From: an uncultured Phycisphaerales bacterium
Lineage (GTDB): Bacteria > Planctomycetota > Phycisphaerae > Sedimentisphaerales > Anaerobacaceae
Direction of reading: 5' to 3'
Length of the DNA stretch: 28,163 bases
NCBI GenBank assembly: GCA_937868145.1
Contig: CALMMH010000636.1
Location: 1 to 28,163 of the forward strand
Below the pieces are notes generated by a model. It was not told the origin of the DNA and did no database searches. It saw only the letters and a list, made by a program, of their open reading frames with translations. Made by a program: the position numbers and the translations under genes. This document shows, in pieces, positions 6,318 through 17,695 of the stretch (position 1 is the stretch's first letter; each line of letters opens with the position of its first letter).

Positions 6318-6444
6318 GGAGCGAGGCGATGCTCGTCGCGTCCGTAAAGGGCACGTGTTGCAGAGAATGGATTCTCCTACGGATTGGCCACCCTTTCTGT
6401 ATCCGGGCTTTCACCGGCTCCCATGTCCCGGCCGGCAACGCCGT

Positions 6445-6750
6445 CTACGAGTCCATCAAGAACTCCGTCGCGGGTTCTCCCGCTTCGAGCGCATCGAGCA
6501 CGGCTTCCGCCTTCTGTTCGGTCATTTCGCCATACCACCAGCCGGCCGGGTAGACGACCATCGCCGGGCCGCGCGTGCACACCTTCAGGCAGCCGGTGCT
6601 GGAGACCTGGGCGTCCAGGCCGCGATTGATGATTTCCTCTTCGAGGTATTGAAGCAGGTCCCTGGCTCCCTTTTTGTTGCAGACGCCCTGGGGTTCTCCC
6701 GTGAGACGAAAACTGTTGCAGACAAAGATGTGATACTGAGGTTTAGCCAT
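6445..6750 (-). CDS. Thioredoxin-like [2Fe-2S] ferredoxin (nif-associated type)
   Basis: Cys11, Cys24, Cys54 and Cys58, with HIFVC and GCLKVCTRGPAMVVYP. This resembles the Clostridium pasteurianum-type 2Fe-2S ferredoxin. SD AGGAGAG. Confidence 0.88.
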   Translation of the reverse strand: MAKPQYHIFVCNSFRLTGEPQGVCNKKGARDLLQYLEEEIINRGLDAQVSSTGCLKVCTRGPAMVVYPAGWWYGEMTEQKAEAVLDALEAGEPATEFLMDS

Positions 6751-8107
6751 GTTGCTCTCCTGTCATGGGGACGGTTGCCGGACAGGCGGGACGCCTGCTT
6801 TCCGCAAAGAGCATCACTCCCGCGCATCCGATCAGACCGACCAGAAAACTGTAAAGATAACAGCTCATGTAATCGACCTGACGGGGTCCGCCGGAAAAAA
6901 CATGGACGAGATGCACCCATAGCCCCATCAGATTCGTATTGACGAATTGCACGCAGCCGGCGACGAGCAGGAACCCTGAATTCATGAAGCCCTTCCTCGC
7001 CGGATCGATCTGATCGAACAGGAAGGGCCACAGGGCCAGCAGAGCCGTGCGGTCGAACACCGCGTCGGCCACGTTGAAGACGACGATGGCCGAGACGGGC
7101 GGGACGCCCTGCGGCGCGACATACTTGACGTACCCCCAGAAGACCGCCGGGTGCAGCGTGGACAGCAGAAGACAACCGGCAAAGAGTTTGAATTTGTCCA
7201 CACGGTCGATGAACACCGCCAGCAGCGGCAGGACCAGAACCGTGTTGATCAGCATGGTCGTCCCGTGCATGTTTCCGAGCATATGTTTGGTGTAGCCGAA
7301 CTGCTCGGTGATCAGCAGAGGCCGTAGATTCATCGGCTGCGTGGCCATCAAAACAGAACTGACGACCAGAATGCACAGCAGGCGGTTCTGGCGCATCAGG
7401 AACATCTGACGCAGATACGCCGCCAGACCCATGCGTTCTCTGCTCTCGCAGGGTCGCGGGCGTTCCCGGACGAAGAGCAACACGATGCAAAGAGAGACAA
7501 CCACGAGAACCGCAGCCGAGAAGTAGATGACCTGTTCTCCCGTCAGGCTGGCCCACCGAGATTTCGACAAGGCCGCAGACGCCATCTTGGCGCCCACGTT
7601 CTCGTCGAACCGGCCGATCAGGAAGAACATGAAGACGAATCGCGCGGCGATCGAGGCGTAGCGGTTGATGACCATCGCCCGGCCTCGTTGCTCCGTGGGC
7701 ACCAGGTCGAAGTAGAGCGGATTCCACGGCCCGGTGTAACCCAGATCGACCGCAAACTGATACATCACGATCACCGCGATCAGCGTGACGAGATTGGACG
7801 TGCCCGGGATCAGGACCAGCGAGACCGCCAGGAAGGCGAAGCCCGCCGCGATAAAGGTTTTTCTGCGGCCCAGGAACGTCCGCACGGAATCGCTGCGGTA
7901 CGCAACCCAGGGCGCGATGACCACCGCGAACAGGCTGTTGAGGCTCCCGATGCAGAGAATCCAGGCGGGGTTGCTGATGTATTTCTTGAGCGTGAACGTC
8001 AGCGCCGTGCCGCTGCACTTCTCGACGAACGCGAACGTCGCCACCGGGATGCTCAACAGCACCAGCCAACCCCAAGGAATTCGTTTCTGTCCTGCATGAA
8101 TCGGCAT
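6743..8107 (-). CDS. MFS transporter
   Basis: About 12 hydrophobic segments. Loop motifs SDSVRTFLGRRKTF, LYFDLVPTEQRGRA and IDRVDKFK. The stop overlaps the ferredoxin start by 8 nt. Confidence 0.85.
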   Translation of the reverse strand: MPIHAGQKRIPWGWLVLLSIPVATFAFVEKCSGTALTFTLKKYISNPAWILCIGSLNSLFAVVIAPWVAYRSDSVRTFLGRRKTFIAAGFAFLAVSLVLIPGTSNLVTLIAVIVMYQFAVDLGYTGPWNPLYFDLVPTEQRGRAMVINRYASIAARFVFMFFLIGRFDENVGAKMASAALSKSRWASLTGEQVIYFSAAVLVVVSLCIVLLFVRERPRPCESRERMGLAAYLRQMFLMRQNRLLCILVVSSVLMATQPMNLRPLLITEQFGYTKHMLGNMHGTTMLINTVLVLPLLAVFIDRVDKFKLFAGCLLLSTLHPAVFWGYVKYVAPQGVPPVSAIVVFNVADAVFDRTALLALWPFLFDQIDPARKGFMNSGFLLVAGCVQFVNTNLMGLWVHLVHVFSGGPRQVDYMSCYLYSFLVGLIGCAGVMLFAESRRPACPATVPMTGEQHG

Positions 8108-8114
8108 GGCGTTC

Positions 8115-9074
8115 TCATTCGACCGTGGTCGGCTGGGTCTCGGACGGTTCCCAGTATGTCATGAATTCGATAAGGTCCTGGAGGTCGATGACGCCGTCGC
8201 CGCCCAGCGGCACGATGTCTCCGACCAGGCCGTCTCCGGTTTCCTGCCAGTGATCGACGATGCAGGACAGGTCGGCCGAGTCGATCCTTCCGTTCGAGTC
8301 GAAATCGACCGCGCCGGCCGCCAGGGTGGTCTCGACCTCCAGGTACGGTCCTGTGTCCCGGATCGTATAGGTTCCGTTCTTGTTGCACTGGACATAGGCG
8401 CGAATGTTGAAGCACGCGCCGCTGTTCAGGGGAGCGTGGAGCATGAACGTCACGATCTCGTCGTTCTCGATCGCGACGACCAGTCCGGCATAATTCGGGT
8501 CCGTCAGATCGAGCTCGAAAGCAAACCAGTTCTCTCCCGCCGAGTAGGGATGTCTCGCATCATAGTGGAGCGTTTCAAGATACGTGGGAGTCGTGCTGTC
8601 CAACAGGGACACAAGCTCTGTGTAGGTAATCCCGACGTCCGGGCCGGCCGTCACGCTGGGGGTTCCGTAACCCTGCTGCCAATCGTTCGAGATCCACAAC
8701 AGATCGAAGTCGCCGGGGCTTCCCAGGTAGTTGAAGGCTCCGTTGGCCGACTGGTTGCCGCTGGTGATCGCCAGTTTCAACGTCATCCGGGAAAGCGTCG
8801 TGCCCTTGCAGAGAGAGGCGTCGAACTTCAGCAACGTGATGAACTCCCCCTTGGGCTGATGATCGATTCCCTCATTCGGGTCATAGGCCCGCGCGGTCGA
8901 GGAAGACACGCACAGGGAGCCCGACCCGCCGAAGTTCCGATCGTTGGCGTCGGGCAACGGAGACCCGACGCCCGGACTGAGCACGAACGTGTTGTTGACG
9001 GGACGCAACGAGCCGGTGACCGCGAAGCCCCGAACCGCCGGCAACAACAGAACTGCAATCAATGCTCTTCTCAT
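8115..9074 (-). CDS. Secreted protein with DNRLRE/CBM96-like domain and C-terminal dockerin/EF-hand-like repeats
   Basis: Signal-like N-terminus and strong SD (AAGGAGG). NTFV...DRNFGGSGSLCV...LLKFD pattern. Ca-loop repeats DFDSNGRIDSADL and DGVIDLQDL. The domain names are assigned from motif resemblance only. Confidence 0.65.
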   Translation of the reverse strand: MRRALIAVLLLPAVRGFAVTGSLRPVNNTFVLSPGVGSPLPDANDRNFGGSGSLCVSSSTARAYDPNEGIDHQPKGEFITLLKFDASLCKGTTLSRMTLKLAITSGNQSANGAFNYLGSPGDFDLLWISNDWQQGYGTPSVTAGPDVGITYTELVSLLDSTTPTYLETLHYDARHPYSAGENWFAFELDLTDPNYAGLVVAIENDEIVTFMLHAPLNSGACFNIRAYVQCNKNGTYTIRDTGPYLEVETTLAAGAVDFDSNGRIDSADLSCIVDHWQETGDGLVGDIVPLGGDGVIDLQDLIEFMTYWEPSETQPTTVE

Positions 9075-9098
9075 GGATTCCTCCTTCTTCGCTCCCGA

Positions 9099-10493
9099 TC
9101 AATCGATGTTGTTCTGACCGGTAAGACTGTAAATCTTGTCGCCCCATTGAAAATCGGTCTCCTCGATCGTGAGGTAGACGCTCTTGGACTCGACGTGGCC
9201 GTCGAGATAGAAAAAGCTGCTCGCCTTGAGATTCTTGCGGGTGGTCAGTCCCCCGTGATTGCGTCCGACCCAATCTAACCGCGGCGGGAAACGCCGTGAT
9301 CCGCTCGGGACGTTGGACAGGTCTTCCGGCGCAACTCGCCTGTAGTTGCCGGTCGACAGGCAGGGACGTTCGGTATCCACCGCGGTCATATTCAGATCGT
9401 ATCGGTCCGGCCCGACCATCAGCCCAAGGCTTCGAAAGCCATGCACCGGCAGATAGCTGCACGACAGAGTCAAATCAGGACCGGAGACAATCCGCCAATC
9501 CGCGGGCCACTCCGTCAGAAGGATCGTTCCCTGCTGGCGGTTGACTCGCGAGAGCTGGACGAGCCGAGACGGCTTCTGCGCGTCCTCGAATCCCGTCTTG
9601 AACCGGTTCCTGGGACACAGGACTTCGTTGACGGTAAAAGCGCAGCGTTTCGCCTGTTGATCGACGATTCCTGGAAGCCCCATGGCCTGCCCGGTGTCGA
9701 GATTCGATTCCTCGGTGTTCCGCGGCACGAGGCCCCCCTCCGGAATCTCGGGACAGTGCAGAGCGTCCTCCGTCGTGTATCGCGAACCGAGCAACAACCC
9801 CGACCAATGACGGATTCCATGGATAGGCTCTCGCGGCTGCGCGTTCAGGCCGGCTTCGGGAACGTACGTGTACGCCGGCGGCAGATACCCATTCTGGGAA
9901 TCGCAGTAGGCCAGGAATGCCAGGCCGGCCGAACGCAGGTTGCTCCGGCACACCAGGGCCCGTGCGGTCTTGCGGACCTGGCCGAGAACCGGCAGCAGAA
10001 TTCCCGTCAGCACTGCGATGACCGCCAGAACCGTCAGGAGTTCGGCCAGGGTGAACCCTTCGTCGCTCGGCCCGCAGCCGCAACCCTCCGTCGGGTAGTA
10101 GACGCTCAGGTCGCCGCCGCCGTAGACGGCGTCGAGGATCGGTGCGATGGGCCCTTCGACGATCGCGACCTCGATCCCGGCGGCCTGCAGAGCCTGCACC
10201 GGGCTGACCCCGGCCGCCGCGGCGAGCAGGGTCCGGCAGTCCGACAAGAGATCGGCAAGCTGTCGCCAACGTTGGACGCCGCCGCCCCGAGGCGGAGCCT
10301 GTCGGATCTCGATCAATTCGTACCCGTTTCCCTTTGGGCCAAAGATCCACAGGCCCCCTGCGTGGCCCAGGTGTTCGTTGACACATCGCCCCTCCAGGCT
10401 GGCCACCGCCACGTAGGACCTGTCCTGCATCGCAGGCGCGCGGGTGGTGTCATCGGCAGGAGAGTTCAGATCTCGATCCATGGGTCTTCTCAC
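9099..10493 (-). CDS. Fusion of a NifB C-terminal/NifX-like cofactor-binding domain and a prepilin-type N-methylation protein with a DGHV C-terminal motif
   Basis: N-terminal YVAVASLEGRCVNEHLGHA...RWRQLADLLSDCRTLL...EGPI followed by GCGCG. Then G146|F147-TLAELLTVLAVIAVLTGILLP...ARALVCRSNL and C-terminal NH...FFYLDGHV. Single uninterrupted frame. The start is GTG 10493 or ATG 10481. Confidence 0.8.
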   Translation of the reverse strand: MRRPMDRDLNSPADDTTRAPAMQDRSYVAVASLEGRCVNEHLGHAGGLWIFGPKGNGYELIEIRQAPPRGGGVQRWRQLADLLSDCRTLLAAAAGVSPVQALQAAGIEVAIVEGPIAPILDAVYGGGDLSVYYPTEGCGCGPSDEGFTLAELLTVLAVIAVLTGILLPVLGQVRKTARALVCRSNLRSAGLAFLAYCDSQNGYLPPAYTYVPEAGLNAQPREPIHGIRHWSGLLLGSRYTTEDALHCPEIPEGGLVPRNTEESNLDTGQAMGLPGIVDQQAKRCAFTVNEVLCPRNRFKTGFEDAQKPSRLVQLSRVNRQQGTILLTEWPADWRIVSGPDLTLSCSYLPVHGFRSLGLMVGPDRYDLNMTAVDTERPCLSTGNYRRVAPEDLSNVPSGSRRFPPRLDWVGRNHGGLTTRKNLKASSFFYLDGHVESKSVYLTIEETDFQWGDKIYSLTGQNNID

Positions 10494-10500
10494 ACATCCG

Positions 10501-11883
10501 TTACATCACCAATTCGAAACTCTCCTCGGGGCTCTCGCGATCCTCCCGCGAAAGGACCGCGTCGAGGATCTTCTCCAACAGACGCATCGCCCCGGCGTAT
10601 CCTACGGTCGGGAAGTACGAGTGCCCGATCCGGTCGAGGATGGGGAACCCGTGGCGGATCAGCGGAATGCCGTCGTCGCGGGAGATGTACTTGCCGTAGG
10701 TGTTGCCGATCAGCAGGTCCACGGGCTCATTCTTGATCCATTGGTGCATCAGGAACATGTCGGCGCCGGGGCCTTGCCGGACCTTCGCTTCCGGCACGCG
10801 CCCGTCCAGTGCCTTGTCGATGCGTTTGAGGAACTTCTTGCCGGGAGTGCCGGTGACGATGTACACCGGGCGCATGTCCAGATCCACCAGGAACTCCGTG
10901 AGCGAAACCAGTTGGTCGGGGTCGCCCCAGAGGGCGACGCGCCTGCCGCTGAAATACTGGTGCATATCCGTGACGATGTCCACGACGCGGCCCCGCTCAT
11001 CCTCGACGTACTGGGGAACCGTGACGTTCGTCGTGCGCCGCAAGGCGTCGACGAACCGGTCCGTCGCGGACAAGCCGATCGGCAGATCCAGGATCTCGCA
11101 GGGCACGCCGCACTTGGTGTCCAGGGCGCGGGCCGCCGCGGACGACGCGGTGTGGCCCAGCGCCAGCGTGGCCATCGCCGACCCGGTTTGCTTGAGTTCG
11201 CCGACCGTGACGCCCCCTTTCGGATAGAATTCGTATTCGCCCGTCTGGGGAGCGTCCAGCACGTCGCTGGTGTCGGGGAAGACAGTCGCCTCGACGCCCA
11301 TCTGCCAGCAGAGACGCTTGATTTCCCGCATGTCCGACGGCTCGACCCAACCGGGAATGATGTTCACAGCCTGCGTCTTGGCCGCCGACGGCTCGGCCAG
11401 GTAATCGACCATCGCCCGGACCATGGTGGAGAACCCCGTCACGTGCGAGCCGGCGTAGCTGGGCGTGTTCGCGTGGATCACGTATTTTCCCGCCGGAATG
11501 AGGCCCTTTTCGCGGGCTTTGTCCGCAATCTGGGGAATGTCGTCCCCGATGGTCTCGGACAGGCAGGTCGTGTGGACCGCGACGACATCCGGATCGTAGA
11601 CGGTGAACAGATTGTCCAGCGCCTGGAGCAGGTTCGACTGGCCGCCGAAGACGGAGGAGCCCTCGGTGAAAGAACTGGTCCCGGCCATGACCGGCTCCTT
11701 GTAGTGCCGCGTCAGCGTGCTGCGATGGTAAGCGCAACAGCCCTGGGAACCGTGGCTGTGCGGCAGACACCGGTGGATGCCCAAGGCCGCGTACATGGCC
11801 CCGATCGGCTGGCACGTCTTGGCCGGGTTGACCGTCAGAGCGTTTCGTTCGACGACATTCGTGGATGTATGTCTAAGCAGCAT
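10501..11883 (-). CDS. nifK: Nitrogenase MoFe protein beta chain (short, group II type)
   Basis: P-cluster cysteines in TCQPIG, HGSQGCC and TTCLSETIGDD. SD GAGGAA/AGGAA precedes the ATG at 11883. Confidence 0.95.
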   Translation of the reverse strand: MLLRHTSTNVVERNALTVNPAKTCQPIGAMYAALGIHRCLPHSHGSQGCCAYHRSTLTRHYKEPVMAGTSSFTEGSSVFGGQSNLLQALDNLFTVYDPDVVAVHTTCLSETIGDDIPQIADKAREKGLIPAGKYVIHANTPSYAGSHVTGFSTMVRAMVDYLAEPSAAKTQAVNIIPGWVEPSDMREIKRLCWQMGVEATVFPDTSDVLDAPQTGEYEFYPKGGVTVGELKQTGSAMATLALGHTASSAAARALDTKCGVPCEILDLPIGLSATDRFVDALRRTTNVTVPQYVEDERGRVVDIVTDMHQYFSGRRVALWGDPDQLVSLTEFLVDLDMRPVYIVTGTPGKKFLKRIDKALDGRVPEAKVRQGPGADMFLMHQWIKNEPVDLLIGNTYGKYISRDDGIPLIRHGFPILDRIGHSYFPTVGYAGAMRLLEKILDAVLSREDRESPEESFELVM

Positions 11884-11899
11884 GTTCCTGATTCCTCGG

Positions 11900-13537
11900 T
11901 TACGAATTGCACACCAGTTCCGCATCGAGCGTGGGCTTGCCCTGTGTGTTCCAGGGCGCCTTCACGAGCGACCAGATCCTGGCATGGATCATCCGATCGA
12001 TGGTTCGGTAGAAAGTGACCGCGCCGCGGAAAGCGGCGAACGGGCCGCCGTAGTCGTAGCTGTGCAGTTGCAGCATGGGGACGCCGCTCTTCTGGACGGA
12101 GTACTTCTCCTTGATGCCGGCGCAGAAGATCGCGGGCTTGAAGATCGCCAGGAGCTTCTCCGTCTCGGCCTGGCTGATGTTGTCGATCACGAGTGTCCCG
12201 CTGTCCATGGCGGCCATCATGCCTTCGTACTCCTTCGGCGCGACGCCCTGGACCGCCAGTTCGGCGAGCTGCTCGGGACTCCTTCGCGGACGATACTCCT
12301 GCGGATCGGCCTCGACAGTCAGTTCCTCGATGTTGCGGCTGTCGGCGTCGACCTTGATCGTCGACAACACCCGGCGGCCTTCGTAGTCGTCGCGGTGACC
12401 GAACTCATAACCGGCCGCGACCGTCTTCATCCCAATCTCCGCCAAGAGATCCTGGTAATGATGGGCCCGCGAGCCGCCGACGAAGAGCATCGCCAGCTTG
12501 CCCTCGCAGCGGGCGCGAATCTCCGCCTGCGCCGCCAGGACGTTCACCATCTCCTCCGCAATGACTTTCTCCACCCGCTCGGTCAGGGCCGCGTCGTCGA
12601 AGTACCGGGCGATTTTCCGCAGCGACTTGGCGGTCGCTTCGGCGCCGAGGAAGTTCACCTTGATCCACGGAATGCCATACTTCTTCTCGATCATATCGGC
12701 CACATAGTTGATCGAGCGGTGGCACATCACGCAGTTGAGGTCCGCGTGATGGGCGTTCTCGAAATCTTCGTAGGTCGAATTCCCACTGAATGTGGAGACC
12801 AGGTGAATGCCGCAGCGTTTGAACAAATCGTCGATCAGGAATGCGTCGCCGCCGATGTTGTATTCGCCCAGCATGTTGATCTTGAACTCGGCCTCGGGCG
12901 GCTTCTGGCCCCGGCCGATCACATGCTTGAACAACTGGTTGTTGGCGATGTGGTGGCCCGCCGACTGGCTCACGCCCTTGTAGCCTTCACAACTGAAGCC
13001 GAAGATGTTGATGCCCAGCTTTTCGGACATCTTCCAGGCCACGCTGTGGATGTCGTCGCCGATCAGGCCGACGGGACAGGTGGCAAAAATACCGATGGCC
13101 TTGGGCTTGAACAGGGTGTAGGCCTCCTGGATCGCCTCGGCCAGTTTCTTCTCTCCGCCAAAGATGATCTCGTTTTCCTGCATGTCCGTGGAGAAACAGT
13201 AGGTCATGAAATTCTGATCGTCGTCGGATTCCGGCCTCGTCTGATTGCGGCGGGTCAGCCATGAGTAGAACCCGCAGCCGATGGGCCCGTGCGTCAGGTT
13301 CAGGATGTCCCGCGTCGGACCCAGCACGACGCCCTTGCAGCCGGCGTAGGTGCAGCCCCGCTGGGTGATGATCCCCGGCATCGTCCGCGTGTTGGCCACG
13401 ATCTCGGGAACCGCGTCGCAGCCTTCTTTCTCGTTGACGACGATCTGCTGGGTCCTCTTGCGCGCCACTTTCGCCGGGTATCCCTTGAGCAGTTGGTCCT
13501 TGACTGTATGCATATCGGTTTGTCGTGAAGACGACAT
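11900..13537 (-). CDS. nifD: Nitrogenase MoFe protein alpha chain (group II, with insertion)
   Basis: RGCTYAGCKGVV, HGPIGC, TCPVGLIGDD, GVSQSAGHH, VMCHRS, VGGSRAHH, YEFGHRDDYEG and LHSYDYGGP. Carries the group II insertion after HRDDYEG. Confidence 0.96.
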   Translation of the reverse strand: MSSSRQTDMHTVKDQLLKGYPAKVARKRTQQIVVNEKEGCDAVPEIVANTRTMPGIITQRGCTYAGCKGVVLGPTRDILNLTHGPIGCGFYSWLTRRNQTRPESDDDQNFMTYCFSTDMQENEIIFGGEKKLAEAIQEAYTLFKPKAIGIFATCPVGLIGDDIHSVAWKMSEKLGINIFGFSCEGYKGVSQSAGHHIANNQLFKHVIGRGQKPPEAEFKINMLGEYNIGGDAFLIDDLFKRCGIHLVSTFSGNSTYEDFENAHHADLNCVMCHRSINYVADMIEKKYGIPWIKVNFLGAEATAKSLRKIARYFDDAALTERVEKVIAEEMVNVLAAQAEIRARCEGKLAMLFVGGSRAHHYQDLLAEIGMKTVAAGYEFGHRDDYEGRRVLSTIKVDADSRNIEELTVEADPQEYRPRRSPEQLAELAVQGVAPKEYEGMMAAMDSGTLVIDNISQAETEKLLAIFKPAIFCAGIKEKYSVQKSGVPMLQLHSYDYGGPFAAFRGAVTFYRTIDRMIHARIWSLVKAPWNTQGKPTLDAELVCNS

Positions 13538-13597
13538 GATGTCACCTCCGATCCGTGATCGGTCTTGAAGAATCTTTCCTCGGCGGATGCGATCGCT

Positions 13598-13996
13598 CTA
13601 TTGGGCGACGATTGGATCCTGGTCGGCCACGGCGGCGTCGCCCGTTTCGCCCGTGCGGACGCGGATCGCGTCGGTCACCGGGCCCACGAAGATCTTGCCG
13701 TCGCCGGGCGAGCCGGTCTTGTTGACCCGGATGATCGTGCGGACCACGAGGTCCACCTTGTCGTTGGGGGTCACGATGGTCAGCATCCGCTTGGGGATCA
13801 TCTTGGGGCCGGAACCGAGCTGATTGATCGCTTCGTCGTGGCCTTCCTGGGCGCCCTGGAGCAACAGGAAATCGACCTTGCCCTTGCCCCGGCCGACCAC
13901 CTTCCTGGCGGTGAGCGAGGAGACGCCGGCGTCGGCCAGCGCCCGTTTGGTTTCGTTCATCTTGTTCATGCGAATGATCGCGAGAATCTCTTTCAT
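13598..13996 (-). CDS. nifI2: P-II family nitrogenase regulator NifI2
   Basis: MKEILAIIRMNK, GRGKG and GDGKIFV. Lies between nifH and nifD. Confidence 0.88.
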   Translation of the reverse strand: MKEILAIIRMNKMNETKRALADAGVSSLTARKVVGRGKGKVDFLLLQGAQEGHDEAINQLGSGPKMIPKRMLTIVTPNDKVDLVVRTIIRVNKTGSPGDGKIFVGPVTDAIRVRTGETGDAAVADQDPIVAQ

Positions 13997-14013
13997 GGCG
14001 GCACCGTCCGATG

Positions 14014-15011
<998 letters not shown>

Positions 15012-15073
15012 CTACATTTCTCCTGGAAACCAAACCTGTGAGCGTCATGTCTTTTCGACATCACGGATACCTT

Positions 15074-15090
15074 ATGCAACCCTCGTGCCA
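15074..15090 (-). promoter_or_regulatory. Sigma54 -24/-12 promoter of the nifH operon
   Basis: TGGCACGAGGGTTGCAT on the minus strand (GG-N10-GC), 63 nt upstream of the nifH ATG. Confidence 0.9.
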
Positions 15091-15219
15091 GACTGCGTTC
15101 GCATCGAGACTTCCCGCGTGACAATGACGCCGGGGCCCGCAAATCAGGCAGGATTGCGAATCGAGCGGCCCAGCAGTCGCTCGCCTGCCATGCGAGCGGG
15201 AGGTTCCTCTCGGAAAAAA

Positions 15220-15238
15220 TTGTCGCTCGCGCGGACAA
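15220..15238. promoter_or_regulatory. Candidate NifA upstream activator site (TGT-N11-ACA variant)
   Basis: Inverted repeat TTGTC-N9-GACAA, about 130 bp upstream of the -24 element. The canonical site is TGT-N10-ACA, so the spacing is off by one. Confidence 0.4.
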
Positions 15239-15392
15239 CATCCCGGGCACAGTCCCTCGGCAACCGCGAAATACGCTTCCGCAACGATCTTGTGACGAAT
15301 CTGTCGCGCCGGCGGGACCTTGTGACAATTCTGTAACAAAGCGGAGTGACTGGCCCAATGAGGACGGACGTGAGAATGACCGACGGGCGGAG

Positions 15393-16976
<1,584 letters not shown>

Positions 16977-17175
16977 ACAATTCTGTAGACCGCCTCTCGT
17001 ATGCCCACATTTTCGTAACCCGCCTCCAAAGAGCAACACGCGGGCCTATGCCCCCCGAGCGATACGAAACGCACGAATTCGCTTCTCAGGCAGCGAAAAT
17101 CTACGATTGGGACCCTGCATGACTGCCTCTTGGGGCCGATCGCCGGCAGGTCTTCCCCGCCATAGAACAGGACAG

Positions 17176-17191
17176 TGCAACTTCCATGCCA
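17176..17191 (-). promoter_or_regulatory. Sigma54 -24/-12 promoter upstream of nifA
   Basis: TGGCATGGAAGTTGCA on the minus strand (GG-N10-GC), 200 nt upstream of the nifA ATG. Confidence 0.7.
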
Positions 17192-17375
17192 ACTGTCTCA
17201 CACACACGCGGTTCGTTCGAACCCGTGAAACGCCGGTCGATGACGCTTACAAACCGACCTACAAAGAACGTACAGAAACGGCTTACTCGGATGGTGCGTG
17301 TGCGGCTGCAATTGGCACGGGACTGATTCCCTCAGAGGCTGGTGTAGACCGGGCTGCGGATGGCGGTAAGCCCAT

Positions 17376-17415
17376 AAAAAAAAGAGCACTTAGGCAACGA
17401 TTGTCACCTAAGTGC
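17376..17415 (-). terminator. Intrinsic terminator after tRNA-Ser
   Basis: GCACTTAGG/CCTAAGTGC stem followed by TC and an 8-T run on the minus strand. Confidence 0.75.
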
Positions 17416-17426
17416 GTTTGGAACAA

Positions 17427-17516
17427 CGGAGAGGTCGGGATTCGAACCCGAGGTAGGGGTTTACCCCCTACAACGGTTTAGCAAACCGTCGCCTTAAGCC
17501 GCTCGGCCACCTCTCC
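17427..17516 (-). tRNA. tRNA-Ser(GCT)
   Basis: GGAGAGG/CCTCTCC acceptor stem, TGGCCGAGCGG D-arm, ACGGT-TTGCTAA-ACCGT anticodon arm, long variable arm and GGTTCGAATCC T-arm. CCA is not encoded. Confidence 0.96.
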
Positions 17517-17695
17517 AAAGTATTCACTTGTAACAACTTACGTCAGAACCAAGCAGTCCGCCCGGATGCGACGTGCCCCAGCCGGCAAAGGCTAAAGCTT
17601 CTAAAGTTTACACCGAACCTGCCGGCTGTACAAGAAAATTTGTGGGAAGTTCCACCGGCGCGGTTCGGTACGCACTTGTTCAACCGTACGGGCGG

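Follow-up and report, generated by a model that had tools for sequence, protein, structure and literature searches.

A NifB-derived NifX-like domain joined in frame to a prepilin-type site and a pseudopilin in an uncultured Phycisphaerales bacterium

A single gene encoding a NifX-like domain, a prepilin-type cleavage site and a pseudopilin was identified directly downstream of nifK in a 28,163-nucleotide (nt) stretch of DNA from an uncultured Phycisphaerales bacterium (GenBank assembly GCA_937868145.1, contig CALMMH010000636.1, positions 1–28,163, hereafter the window). Comparison with related loci makes it very probable that this fusion had a single origin, from nifB and a DUF1559-like pseudopilin gene located 11 nt downstream of it. 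The reading that we prefer, at evenly balanced confidence for its whole chain of mechanism, is that the product is a two-in-one precursor from which prepilin peptidase would release the NifX-like protein, leaving a pseudopilin of the usual kind that is not functionally coupled to it.

The fusion gene lies on the minus strand at 9099–10481 (460 residues plus stop). The open reading frame (ORF) runs from 10493 to 9099 and encodes 464 residues when counted from the GTG at 10493 chosen in the initial annotation; this codon is 4 codons 5′ of a conserved ATG at 10481, which is 19 nt past the nifK stop and is the start in four orthologues and in gene call P0002, giving 460 residues. Both numberings are used here (464-residue from the GTG, 460-residue from the ATG; offset 4). 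From the N-terminus, the gene comprises approximately the first 15 codons of nifB (the stub 'MDRDL..PADD', 10437–10481, recognised by alignment with the intact NifB P0093), a NifX-like (Nitro_FeMo-Co) domain from the NifB C-terminal domain (10113–10427; Pfam and NCBIfam matches, alignments), a Cys-containing linker, 'GGGDLSVYYPTEGCGCGPSDE', which DNA alignment identifies as a remnant of the NifB C-terminal tail (10059–10112), the prepilin-type site G↓FTLAE (10041–10058; N_methyl and TIGR02532 matches; the arrow marks the predicted cut), a hydrophobic alpha1-N helix that forms the membrane segment of the pilin part (9990–10055; AlphaFold2 (AF2) model) and a globular, divergent DUF1559-like pseudopilin domain (9102–9989; AF2, structure search) containing the motif 'NHGG..FFYLDGHV' at ~9195–9260. 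Within the site, Gly-1 is encoded at 10056–10058, Phe+1 at 10053–10055 and Glu+5 at 10041–10043. The placement of the frame directly after nifK, which ends at 10501 with the fusion gene next downstream, is as originally described, and so are the tail 'EGCGCGPSDEG', the G146↓F147 pair (464-residue numbering, nt 10058–10053), Glu151 and the near-C-terminal 'FFYLDGHV'.

Profile searches agree with this architecture. Nitro_FeMo-Co (PF02579) matches residues 37–123 (464-residue numbering) with an E-value of 3e-10 and 40.7 bits (cut-off 26.3), spanning profile positions 4–92 of 94, which bears out the NifX/NifB C-terminal assignment proposed at the outset. The NCBIfam nifB model TIGR01290 matches through its positions 324–423 only, on residues 20–111 of the same numbering, reaching 43.5 bits where the cut-off is 343.65. 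At the cleavage site, N_methyl, on residues 145–167 (464-residue numbering), passes its cut-off of 21.2 bits only narrowly at 21.4, and TIGR02532, the model for prepilin cleavage/methylation, scores 22.0 bits against 16.3. Profile matches and alignments thus uphold the claim that what precedes a conserved prepilin-type site, in the position of a leader, is a whole NifX-family domain.

The source genome is a fragmented metagenome-assembled genome (MAG) of 1150 contigs, in which such a frame might have come from chimeric assembly, a sequence error that shifts the frame or an overlooked stop codon; we give this explanation practically no weight, as it is already refuted by independent copies. Four or more further assemblies, made independently, carry the gene at 73–80% identity. 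A word-indexed protein search returned three full-length relatives (P0003, P0004 and P0005; 460–464 residues, 73–78% identity), a 383-residue version (P0006) and many relatives of 326–329 residues without the N-terminal part. Five further versions are known from NCBI, JGI and SRA assemblies, namely three full-length copies (460–464 residues), the 238-residue fragment P0213 and a copy that has lost the NifX-like core (contig L007). The contigs derive from an NCBI MAG, a JGI metagenome contig and several separate SRA-run assemblies, and the gene order nifA-nifH-I1-I2-D-K-fusion-319-residue secreted protein-MFS-ferredoxin is identical in all five contig-located copies. The junction is the same to the nucleotide across the NCBI, JGI and SRA copies, although their residues differ from those of the window by 20–27%, and the flanks of the window's contig are syntenic with 15 same-genus genomes. 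The architecture proposed at first from one sequence is therefore shared with other genomes and did not arise through misassembly.

The distribution of the fusion is nevertheless narrow. An exhaustive HMMER search of 1.84 billion representative proteins recovered both parts together only in the fusion clade (P0004 and P0213), the remaining matches being to the NifX-like part alone (NifB and NifX proteins) or to the pilin helix alone. A scan of all GTDB species genomes with the single fusion protein as query gave no match, and with an alignment it gave no fusion, just unfused orthologues at ≤57% identity; in a search of 40 relatives, the 23 same-genus species covered had neither an orthologue above 40% identity nor any nif genes. 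Three public metagenome proteins (P0351, P0352 and P0274) that looked like long-leader pilins proved to be pilin-pilin read-through ORFs and not NifX fusions, with two tandem prepilin motifs and a DUF1559 pilin behind a fragment or whole copy of another, which indicates that read-through fusions recur in this pilin family. The best-matching sequencing runs share at most 0.16 of the words with the window, and reads from four runs gave just short pieces of low depth. One of these, a 254-nt contig from a sediment metatranscriptome (RNA) library, covers 10235–10488 at 96% identity and ends short of the junction; transcription of a close relative of the fusion gene is possible but unproven.

The parentage of the fusion can be read from its closest unfused relative, P0007, which is 74% identical over the pilin part. 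Its contig (L049) carries, in order, nifN, an intact nifB (417 residues; radical S-adenosylmethionine (SAM) and Nitro_FeMo-Co domains), an 11-nt spacer, the pilin gene with the leader MDREERNEG↓F, a secreted protein gene and a major facilitator superfamily (MFS) transporter gene. DNA alignment showed that the ribosome-binding site and ATG region of the fusion are homologous to those of nifB in L049, and at the 5′ end the sequence 'MDRDLSNHPCFNADV' of the intact NifB P0093 aligns at both DNA and protein level with 'MDRDL..NSPADD', 'MDHHLSIDFSSPADD' and 'MEQNLSIYFCFPADN' of the fusions. NifB residues ~19–289, the radical-SAM core, are absent from the fusion. The five signature motifs that define NifB (PMC5715403), Cx3Cx2C, ExRP, AGPG, TxTxN and Cx2CRxDAxG, are found in P0093 at residues 30, 46, 81, 134 and 257 and in the fusion not at all (0/5), so that the fusion protein, lacking the whole core, cannot make NifB-co. 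At the downstream end, a 50-nt gap relative to L049 is identical in 5/5 fused copies in the DNA alignment; this deletion took seven codons from the end of nifB together with its TAG, then the spacer, and from the pilin gene the ATG and six leader codons. Its junction coincides with the 3′ end of the Cys-containing linker, in which two Cys persist that are universal or almost so among the tails of 28 intact NifBs, the final Cys having gone with the deletion.

An in-frame deletion removed the radical-SAM core, and the 50-nt deletion welded the frame of the nifB remnant to the pilin frame just before 'EG↓FTL'. Because the parent genes lay in different frames, the 50-nt loss puts them in register immediately ahead of Glu-Gly↓Phe, and because it took the pilin ATG and most of the leader, the pilin part is translatable only from the nifB start; the ~15-residue NifB stub and the NifX-like domain now occupy the place of a former ~10-residue leader. 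In a maximum-likelihood tree of the domain, the four full fusions form one clade (100/100) beside L049-type NifB (95/90), with tip branches of 0.05–0.11 changes/site. Canonical clusters in related MAGs read nifH-I1-I2-D-K-E-N-B-ferredoxin-modABC-nifV, and since these carry nifE and nifN before nifB, the fused lineage also lost both genes from the locus. The two halves of the gene differ in their synonymous divergence (dS) among the window, L003, L005 and L046: in the N-terminal part dS is 0.15–0.53, with the window closest to L005, and in the pilin part 0.6–1.4, with L003 closest to L005 and the window as the outlier, which hints at recombination within or near the fusion gene. In L049, a second pilin-like gene (294 residues) and a gene for a 217-residue secreted protein lie directly 5′ of nifN (L049:254–1814).

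The NifX-like domain has kept the His that aligns with the family's cluster-binding residue, and it may have kept the fold. Its identity to the C-domain of L049 NifB is 64%, and fusions and parental domains share 56–59% identity with just one single-residue gap in the core. A model of the parental NifB C-domain (predicted local distance difference test (pLDDT) >90) matches NifX in Foldseek (9ian_F, E 5e-8, template modelling (TM) score 0.63) as well as NafY (1p90), and the ESM Atlas model of the fusion reaches a TM score of 0.50 to the NifB/NifX cluster. The His of 'NEHLG' (H37 in the 460-residue and H41 in the 464-residue numbering; nt 10371–10373) is invariant in the four fusions and in 28 NifB C-domains; phmmer places 'NEHLG' opposite 'DQHFG' of A. 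vinelandii NifX (9ian_E, E 4e-4), so that the His faces NifX H35, which a 2026 structural study identified, within the 'HFG' motif, as a NifB-co ligand common to NifX-like proteins (PMC13128457).

Selection on the domain was assessed from ratios of nonsynonymous to synonymous divergence (dN/dS), calculated pairwise by the Nei-Gojobori method over short regions of the four related full fusions. The NifX-like core (97 codons) gave dN/dS values of 0.13–0.42, with bootstrap upper bounds of 0.26–0.93 that remained below 1 in 6/6 pairs, compared with 0.12–0.155 for the pilin part of the same proteins and 0.05–0.16 for the corresponding domain of three intact NifBs. Of the 21 columns without variation across the 28 intact NifB C-domains, 19 are the same in every one of the four fusions, as are 10 of the 12 near-invariant columns; variable columns diverged freely. 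These values bear on the possibility that the domain is a passenger relic, that is, a functionless NifB remnant kept as the frame must stay open and either cut off and degraded or simply tolerated. An open frame needs no amino-acid conservation, yet constraint is evident here, and the substitutions spare most of the positions invariant in functional NifB C-domains, including the cluster-binding His.

A natural control is provided by the L007 lineage (P0006, six sequences), in which a further in-frame deletion removed 81 core residues. The remaining 64-residue leader has a dN/dS of 0.50–0.69, and between L007 and its sister L046 the leader dN is six times that of the pilin part, whereas the two rates are roughly equal in intact fusions; the pilin part of L007 is as constrained as elsewhere (0.12–0.17). 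The L007 leader serves as an example of a leader free of constraint, and indicates that the protein tolerates one that is unfolded. Its rapid drift once the fold was broken, beside a steady pilin, implies that in the other four lineages it is the folded domain as a whole that is constrained, and tells against a relic. Since L007 lost the core with its pilin just as constrained, the pilin does not need the NifX-like domain. Taken together, the substitution patterns favour a domain that retains function over a pure passenger, and we regard the relic explanation as somewhat unlikely. The prospect, raised at the outset, of an accidental fusion without recurrence is set aside by the purifying selection on the domain and by the presence of the architecture in other genomes.

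The cleavage site itself is well conserved. Gly-1, Phe+1 and Glu+5 are unchanged among the fusions, in which all differences at the site are synonymous, and among twelve orthologues Glu+5 is invariant and Phe+1 nearly so. The site, G↓FTLAELLTVLAVIAVLTGILLP, has the Gly-1, the hydrophobic stretch, the Glu+5 and the profile match of a class III signal, preceded by a leader of 141 residues with a domain in place of a short N-terminal hydrophilic one. The prepilin motif is not a chance match because unfused orthologues (326–329 residues) have an ordinary leader of 9–10 residues, ending in G or A, before the same FTL.EL helix. The nearest in-frame ATG, GTG or TTG 5′ of the site is 47 codons away in the window (range 11–47 over the four copies of full length; 37 in L007), so that an ordinary short leader cannot be made. 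A prepilin peptidase (A24) fragment with the motif GLGDVHLMG is encoded at a contig end (C889) in the same genome.

The acidic residues before the G↓F bond had been advanced in the initial annotation as a reason to doubt cleavage. They carry little weight, because the closest unfused orthologue, with its leader MDREERNEG↓F, has the same Glu at −2. The point matters for a third explanation, an uncleaved bitopic protein in which a cytoplasmically tethered NifX-like domain would link metallocluster or nitrogen status to the periplasmic pilin domain, or would anchor cofactor handling beside the MFS transporter. The D and E before the Gly and the basic residues after the helix, unlike a classic basic leader, would suit such a protein, as would the repeated linkage of the pilin, the 319-residue secreted protein and the MFS transporter to nif genes or a NifA-like activator in related genomes. 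We nevertheless consider it improbable: the unfused leader is equally acidic; the pilin is equally constrained with the domain (0.12–0.155), without it (L006, L050 and L049) and with the domain destroyed (L007, 0.12–0.17); and the architecture had a single accidental origin, with no other such case among the 1.84 billion representative proteins. The coupling of metallocluster or nitrogen status to a pilin-like protein suggested at first accordingly finds no support, the fusion being a by-product of deletions that gutted nifB, and the L007 pilin faring well without the core.

The pilin part is confidently modelled, with a single continuous helix at residues 145–195 (pLDDT >90) and a globular head mostly above pLDDT 90. 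A structure search of the ESM Atlas gave a TM score of 0.81 to a Planctomycetota cluster with N_methyl and DUF1559 (SBP_bac_10), and a Foldseek search of the full model against the PDB found nothing significant for the head. PF07596 reaches 14.9 bits, below its cut-off of 23.3, and TIGR04294 (H-X9-DG) has no match in the fusion protein at E-values up to 0.05. Of the N_methyl and H-X9-DG assignments suggested originally, the former therefore holds, with N_methyl and TIGR02532 above threshold, and the latter fits loosely, the spacing being H413-X17-D431 G432 (464-residue numbering). Given this structural similarity, the sub-threshold profiles and the H-X17-DG motif, the modelled head is best described as a divergent relative of DUF1559/H-X9-DG proteins.

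These observations can be assembled into the reading that we prefer, in which two original products are recovered from one precursor. The signal recognition particle and Sec would insert the hydrophobic helix as in any prepilin, and the bulky folded NifX-like domain would stay in the cytoplasm, in keeping with the usual topology of prepilins (PMC10191384). A flexible, Cys-rich linker of ~17 residues, poorly ordered in the AF2 model, would keep the G142↓F143 bond (460-residue numbering) accessible to prepilin peptidase, whose active site at the cytoplasmic face would cut after Gly142; prepilin leaders are known to vary in length and to be cut at that face (PMC10191384). One product would be a NifX-like cluster carrier of ~15 kDa, now free, and the other a mature pseudopilin of the ordinary kind that works with the neighbouring secreted protein and MFS transporter; the two halves would need no interaction. 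We propose that the loss of the pilin start codon was tolerated because the intact peptidase site would restore two products, the NifX-like domain being kept afterwards for its own sake, a domain already described as a separable, non-essential module of NifB (PMC5715403). The stronger claim, that the 141-residue leader is a folded and still functional NifX-like carrier freed by the peptidase, giving a cytoplasmic cofactor chaperone and a periplasmic pseudopilin from one gene, is put forward tentatively, as a possibility with the balance somewhat on the other side.

Several points weigh against this reading or speak for a passenger relic. Constraint on the fused domain is ~twofold weaker than in intact NifB, the stem branch of the fused clade is long (0.5 changes/site), and one lineage (L007) dispensed with the NifX-like core, dropping its 81 residues in frame with the pilin part well conserved. 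The deletions occurred as the nif cluster shrank: none of the fused copies retains nifE, nifN or the nifB core at the locus, and several unfused relatives (L006, L050, L032 and L035) likewise lack nifENB there. In the source genome nifH is broken, and nifE, nifN, the nifB core, modAB and a close nifV were not found in the 90%-complete assembly by hidden Markov model or tblastn searches; with a dead nifH and no nifENB, a carrier would have nothing to carry there. The pilin-pilin read-through ORFs, moreover, are instances of accidental fusion among genes of this family, and a 26-residue prepilin leader has already been called 'unusually long' (PMC12448462). The full-length AF2 model gave the N-domain a confidence of just 40–70, with the 28 NifB C-domain rows misplaced by MAFFT; degeneration of the N-domain was rejected as an explanation, since 0/28 of these rows were aligned to it, and the value is uninformative for that reason.

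The fusion belongs to a nif segment whose minus-strand order is NifA-like activator, nifH, nifI1, nifI2, nifD, nifK, fusion, 319-residue secreted protein, MFS transporter and thioredoxin-like [2Fe-2S] ferredoxin. The region at ~6430–17400, from the ferredoxin to nifA, has no counterpart in 15 same-genus genomes, with which both flanks (porin-pst-phoU and GH106) are syntenic at 77–85% nucleotide identity; the segment is therefore an acquired island of ~11 kb, bounded by tRNA-Ser(GCT) at 17426–17517 (minus strand) on one side and by phoU on the other. Misbinning of the contig was rejected on the same synteny of both flanks. Named neighbours of its PhoU and named loci mark the host as a member of the Planctomycetota, of Phycisphaerae/Sedimentisphaerales type. 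The surroundings of the nif module differ in L003, L005 and L007. Within the island, nifK (10501–11883, minus strand) scores 437.6 bits against 427.3 with TIGR01286 and is 90–97% identical among island copies (dN/dS 0.05–0.10), and nifD and nifK (10501–13537) look intact. Comparison with the intact nifH of L003 shows that nifH (14383–15011, minus strand) is broken by a frame-shifting 199-nt deletion at ~14565, flanked by the 9-bp repeat TGCAGCGGG, which the L003 gene has in both copies; contigs of relatives continue '..SGEMMAMYA..' at the deletion point. The island is thus apparently defunct in the source host, while an intact nifH and a strongly constrained nifK elsewhere indicate that it is probably functional in those hosts.

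Downstream of the fusion, and likewise on the minus strand, lie the genes for the 319-residue secreted protein with a dockerin-like C-terminus (8115–9074; synteny and weak EF-hand/dockerin matches), which always adjoins the pilin-like gene, for the MFS transporter (6743–8107; PF07690 on orthologues, synteny), the third member of a conserved trio, and for the thioredoxin-like [2Fe-2S] ferredoxin of the nif-associated type (6445–6750; NF041612 fdxn_Clost, E 3.9e-24), which comes after nifB in the canonical clusters L052 and L015. The pilin-like protein, the dockerin-tailed secreted protein of ~310 residues and the MFS transporter form a conserved cassette (6743–10058 in the window; also L006, L010, L021, L032, L035, L049 and L050) whose linkage to nif genes takes four or more different forms, the cassette following nifK, nifB or the ferredoxin or being divergent from nifH. 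In G038 the trio stands behind a NifA-like sigma-54 activator, and in L010 it stands alone; canonical clusters have modABC and nifV at the corresponding place.

Comparison with known systems brings out shared and differing features. NifB that carries a NifX-like domain at its C-terminus, behind the SAM domain, is the commonest bacterial architecture, the three described being SAM, SAM-NifX and NifN-SAM-NifX (PMC5715403). The N-terminal 141 residues of the fusion descend from such a two-domain NifB, sharing its start region and a NifX-like domain that nests in the NifB clade, but the fusion has no radical-SAM core and continues into a pilin where NifB stops, and so corresponds to none of the three. 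With the NifX, NafY and VnfX carriers it shares the PF02579 match, the equivalent of NifX H35 and probably the fold family; unlike them it has no separate gene for the domain, which would be free only if prepilin peptidase cuts, and unlike NifX it lacks the NifE-binding C-terminal tail, no nifEN having been found in the source genome. DUF1559/'H-X9-DG' pseudopilins of Planctomycetota and Verrucomicrobiota, of which there are dozens of DUF1559-type paralogues per genome, resemble it in the class III signal motif, the long alpha1 helix, the globular head and the C-terminal ..DGH.., and differ in that the fusion falls below the PF07596 threshold, has H-X17-DG, belongs to a nif-linked trio and has a leader of 141 residues as opposed to ~10. 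Long-leader pilins (type IVb pilins, S. sanguinis PilE, O. meridianum ArlB) likewise have a cytoplasmic hydrophilic leader that ends in Gly and is removed by an aspartic prepilin peptidase, as is predicted here, but the 141-residue leader of the fusion is predicted to contain a folded domain. To our knowledge, the prepilin leaders on record are unstructured and no longer than a few tens of residues.

The fusion is less remarkable than first proposed, because nothing points to a functional link between its halves. For type IV filaments it nevertheless offers a natural test of the limits on the length and structure of prepilin leaders, and of whether the peptidase can free a folded cytoplasmic domain. 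For nitrogenase, a NifX-like domain has outlived the catalytic half of NifB under purifying selection, in a transferable nifHDK island of ~11 kb without nifENB, which raises the question of the cofactor source in Phycisphaerae-type Planctomycetota. In evolutionary terms the case is unusually clean, as sequence data show the two parent genes, the precise points of deletion, a product that has been conserved and a lineage in which it was later 'knocked out'. If the leader is indeed cleaved and functional, the gene would encode a polyprotein, occurring in nature, that a class III signal peptidase separates into its parts, and would represent a fourth, SAM-less architecture derived from NifB.

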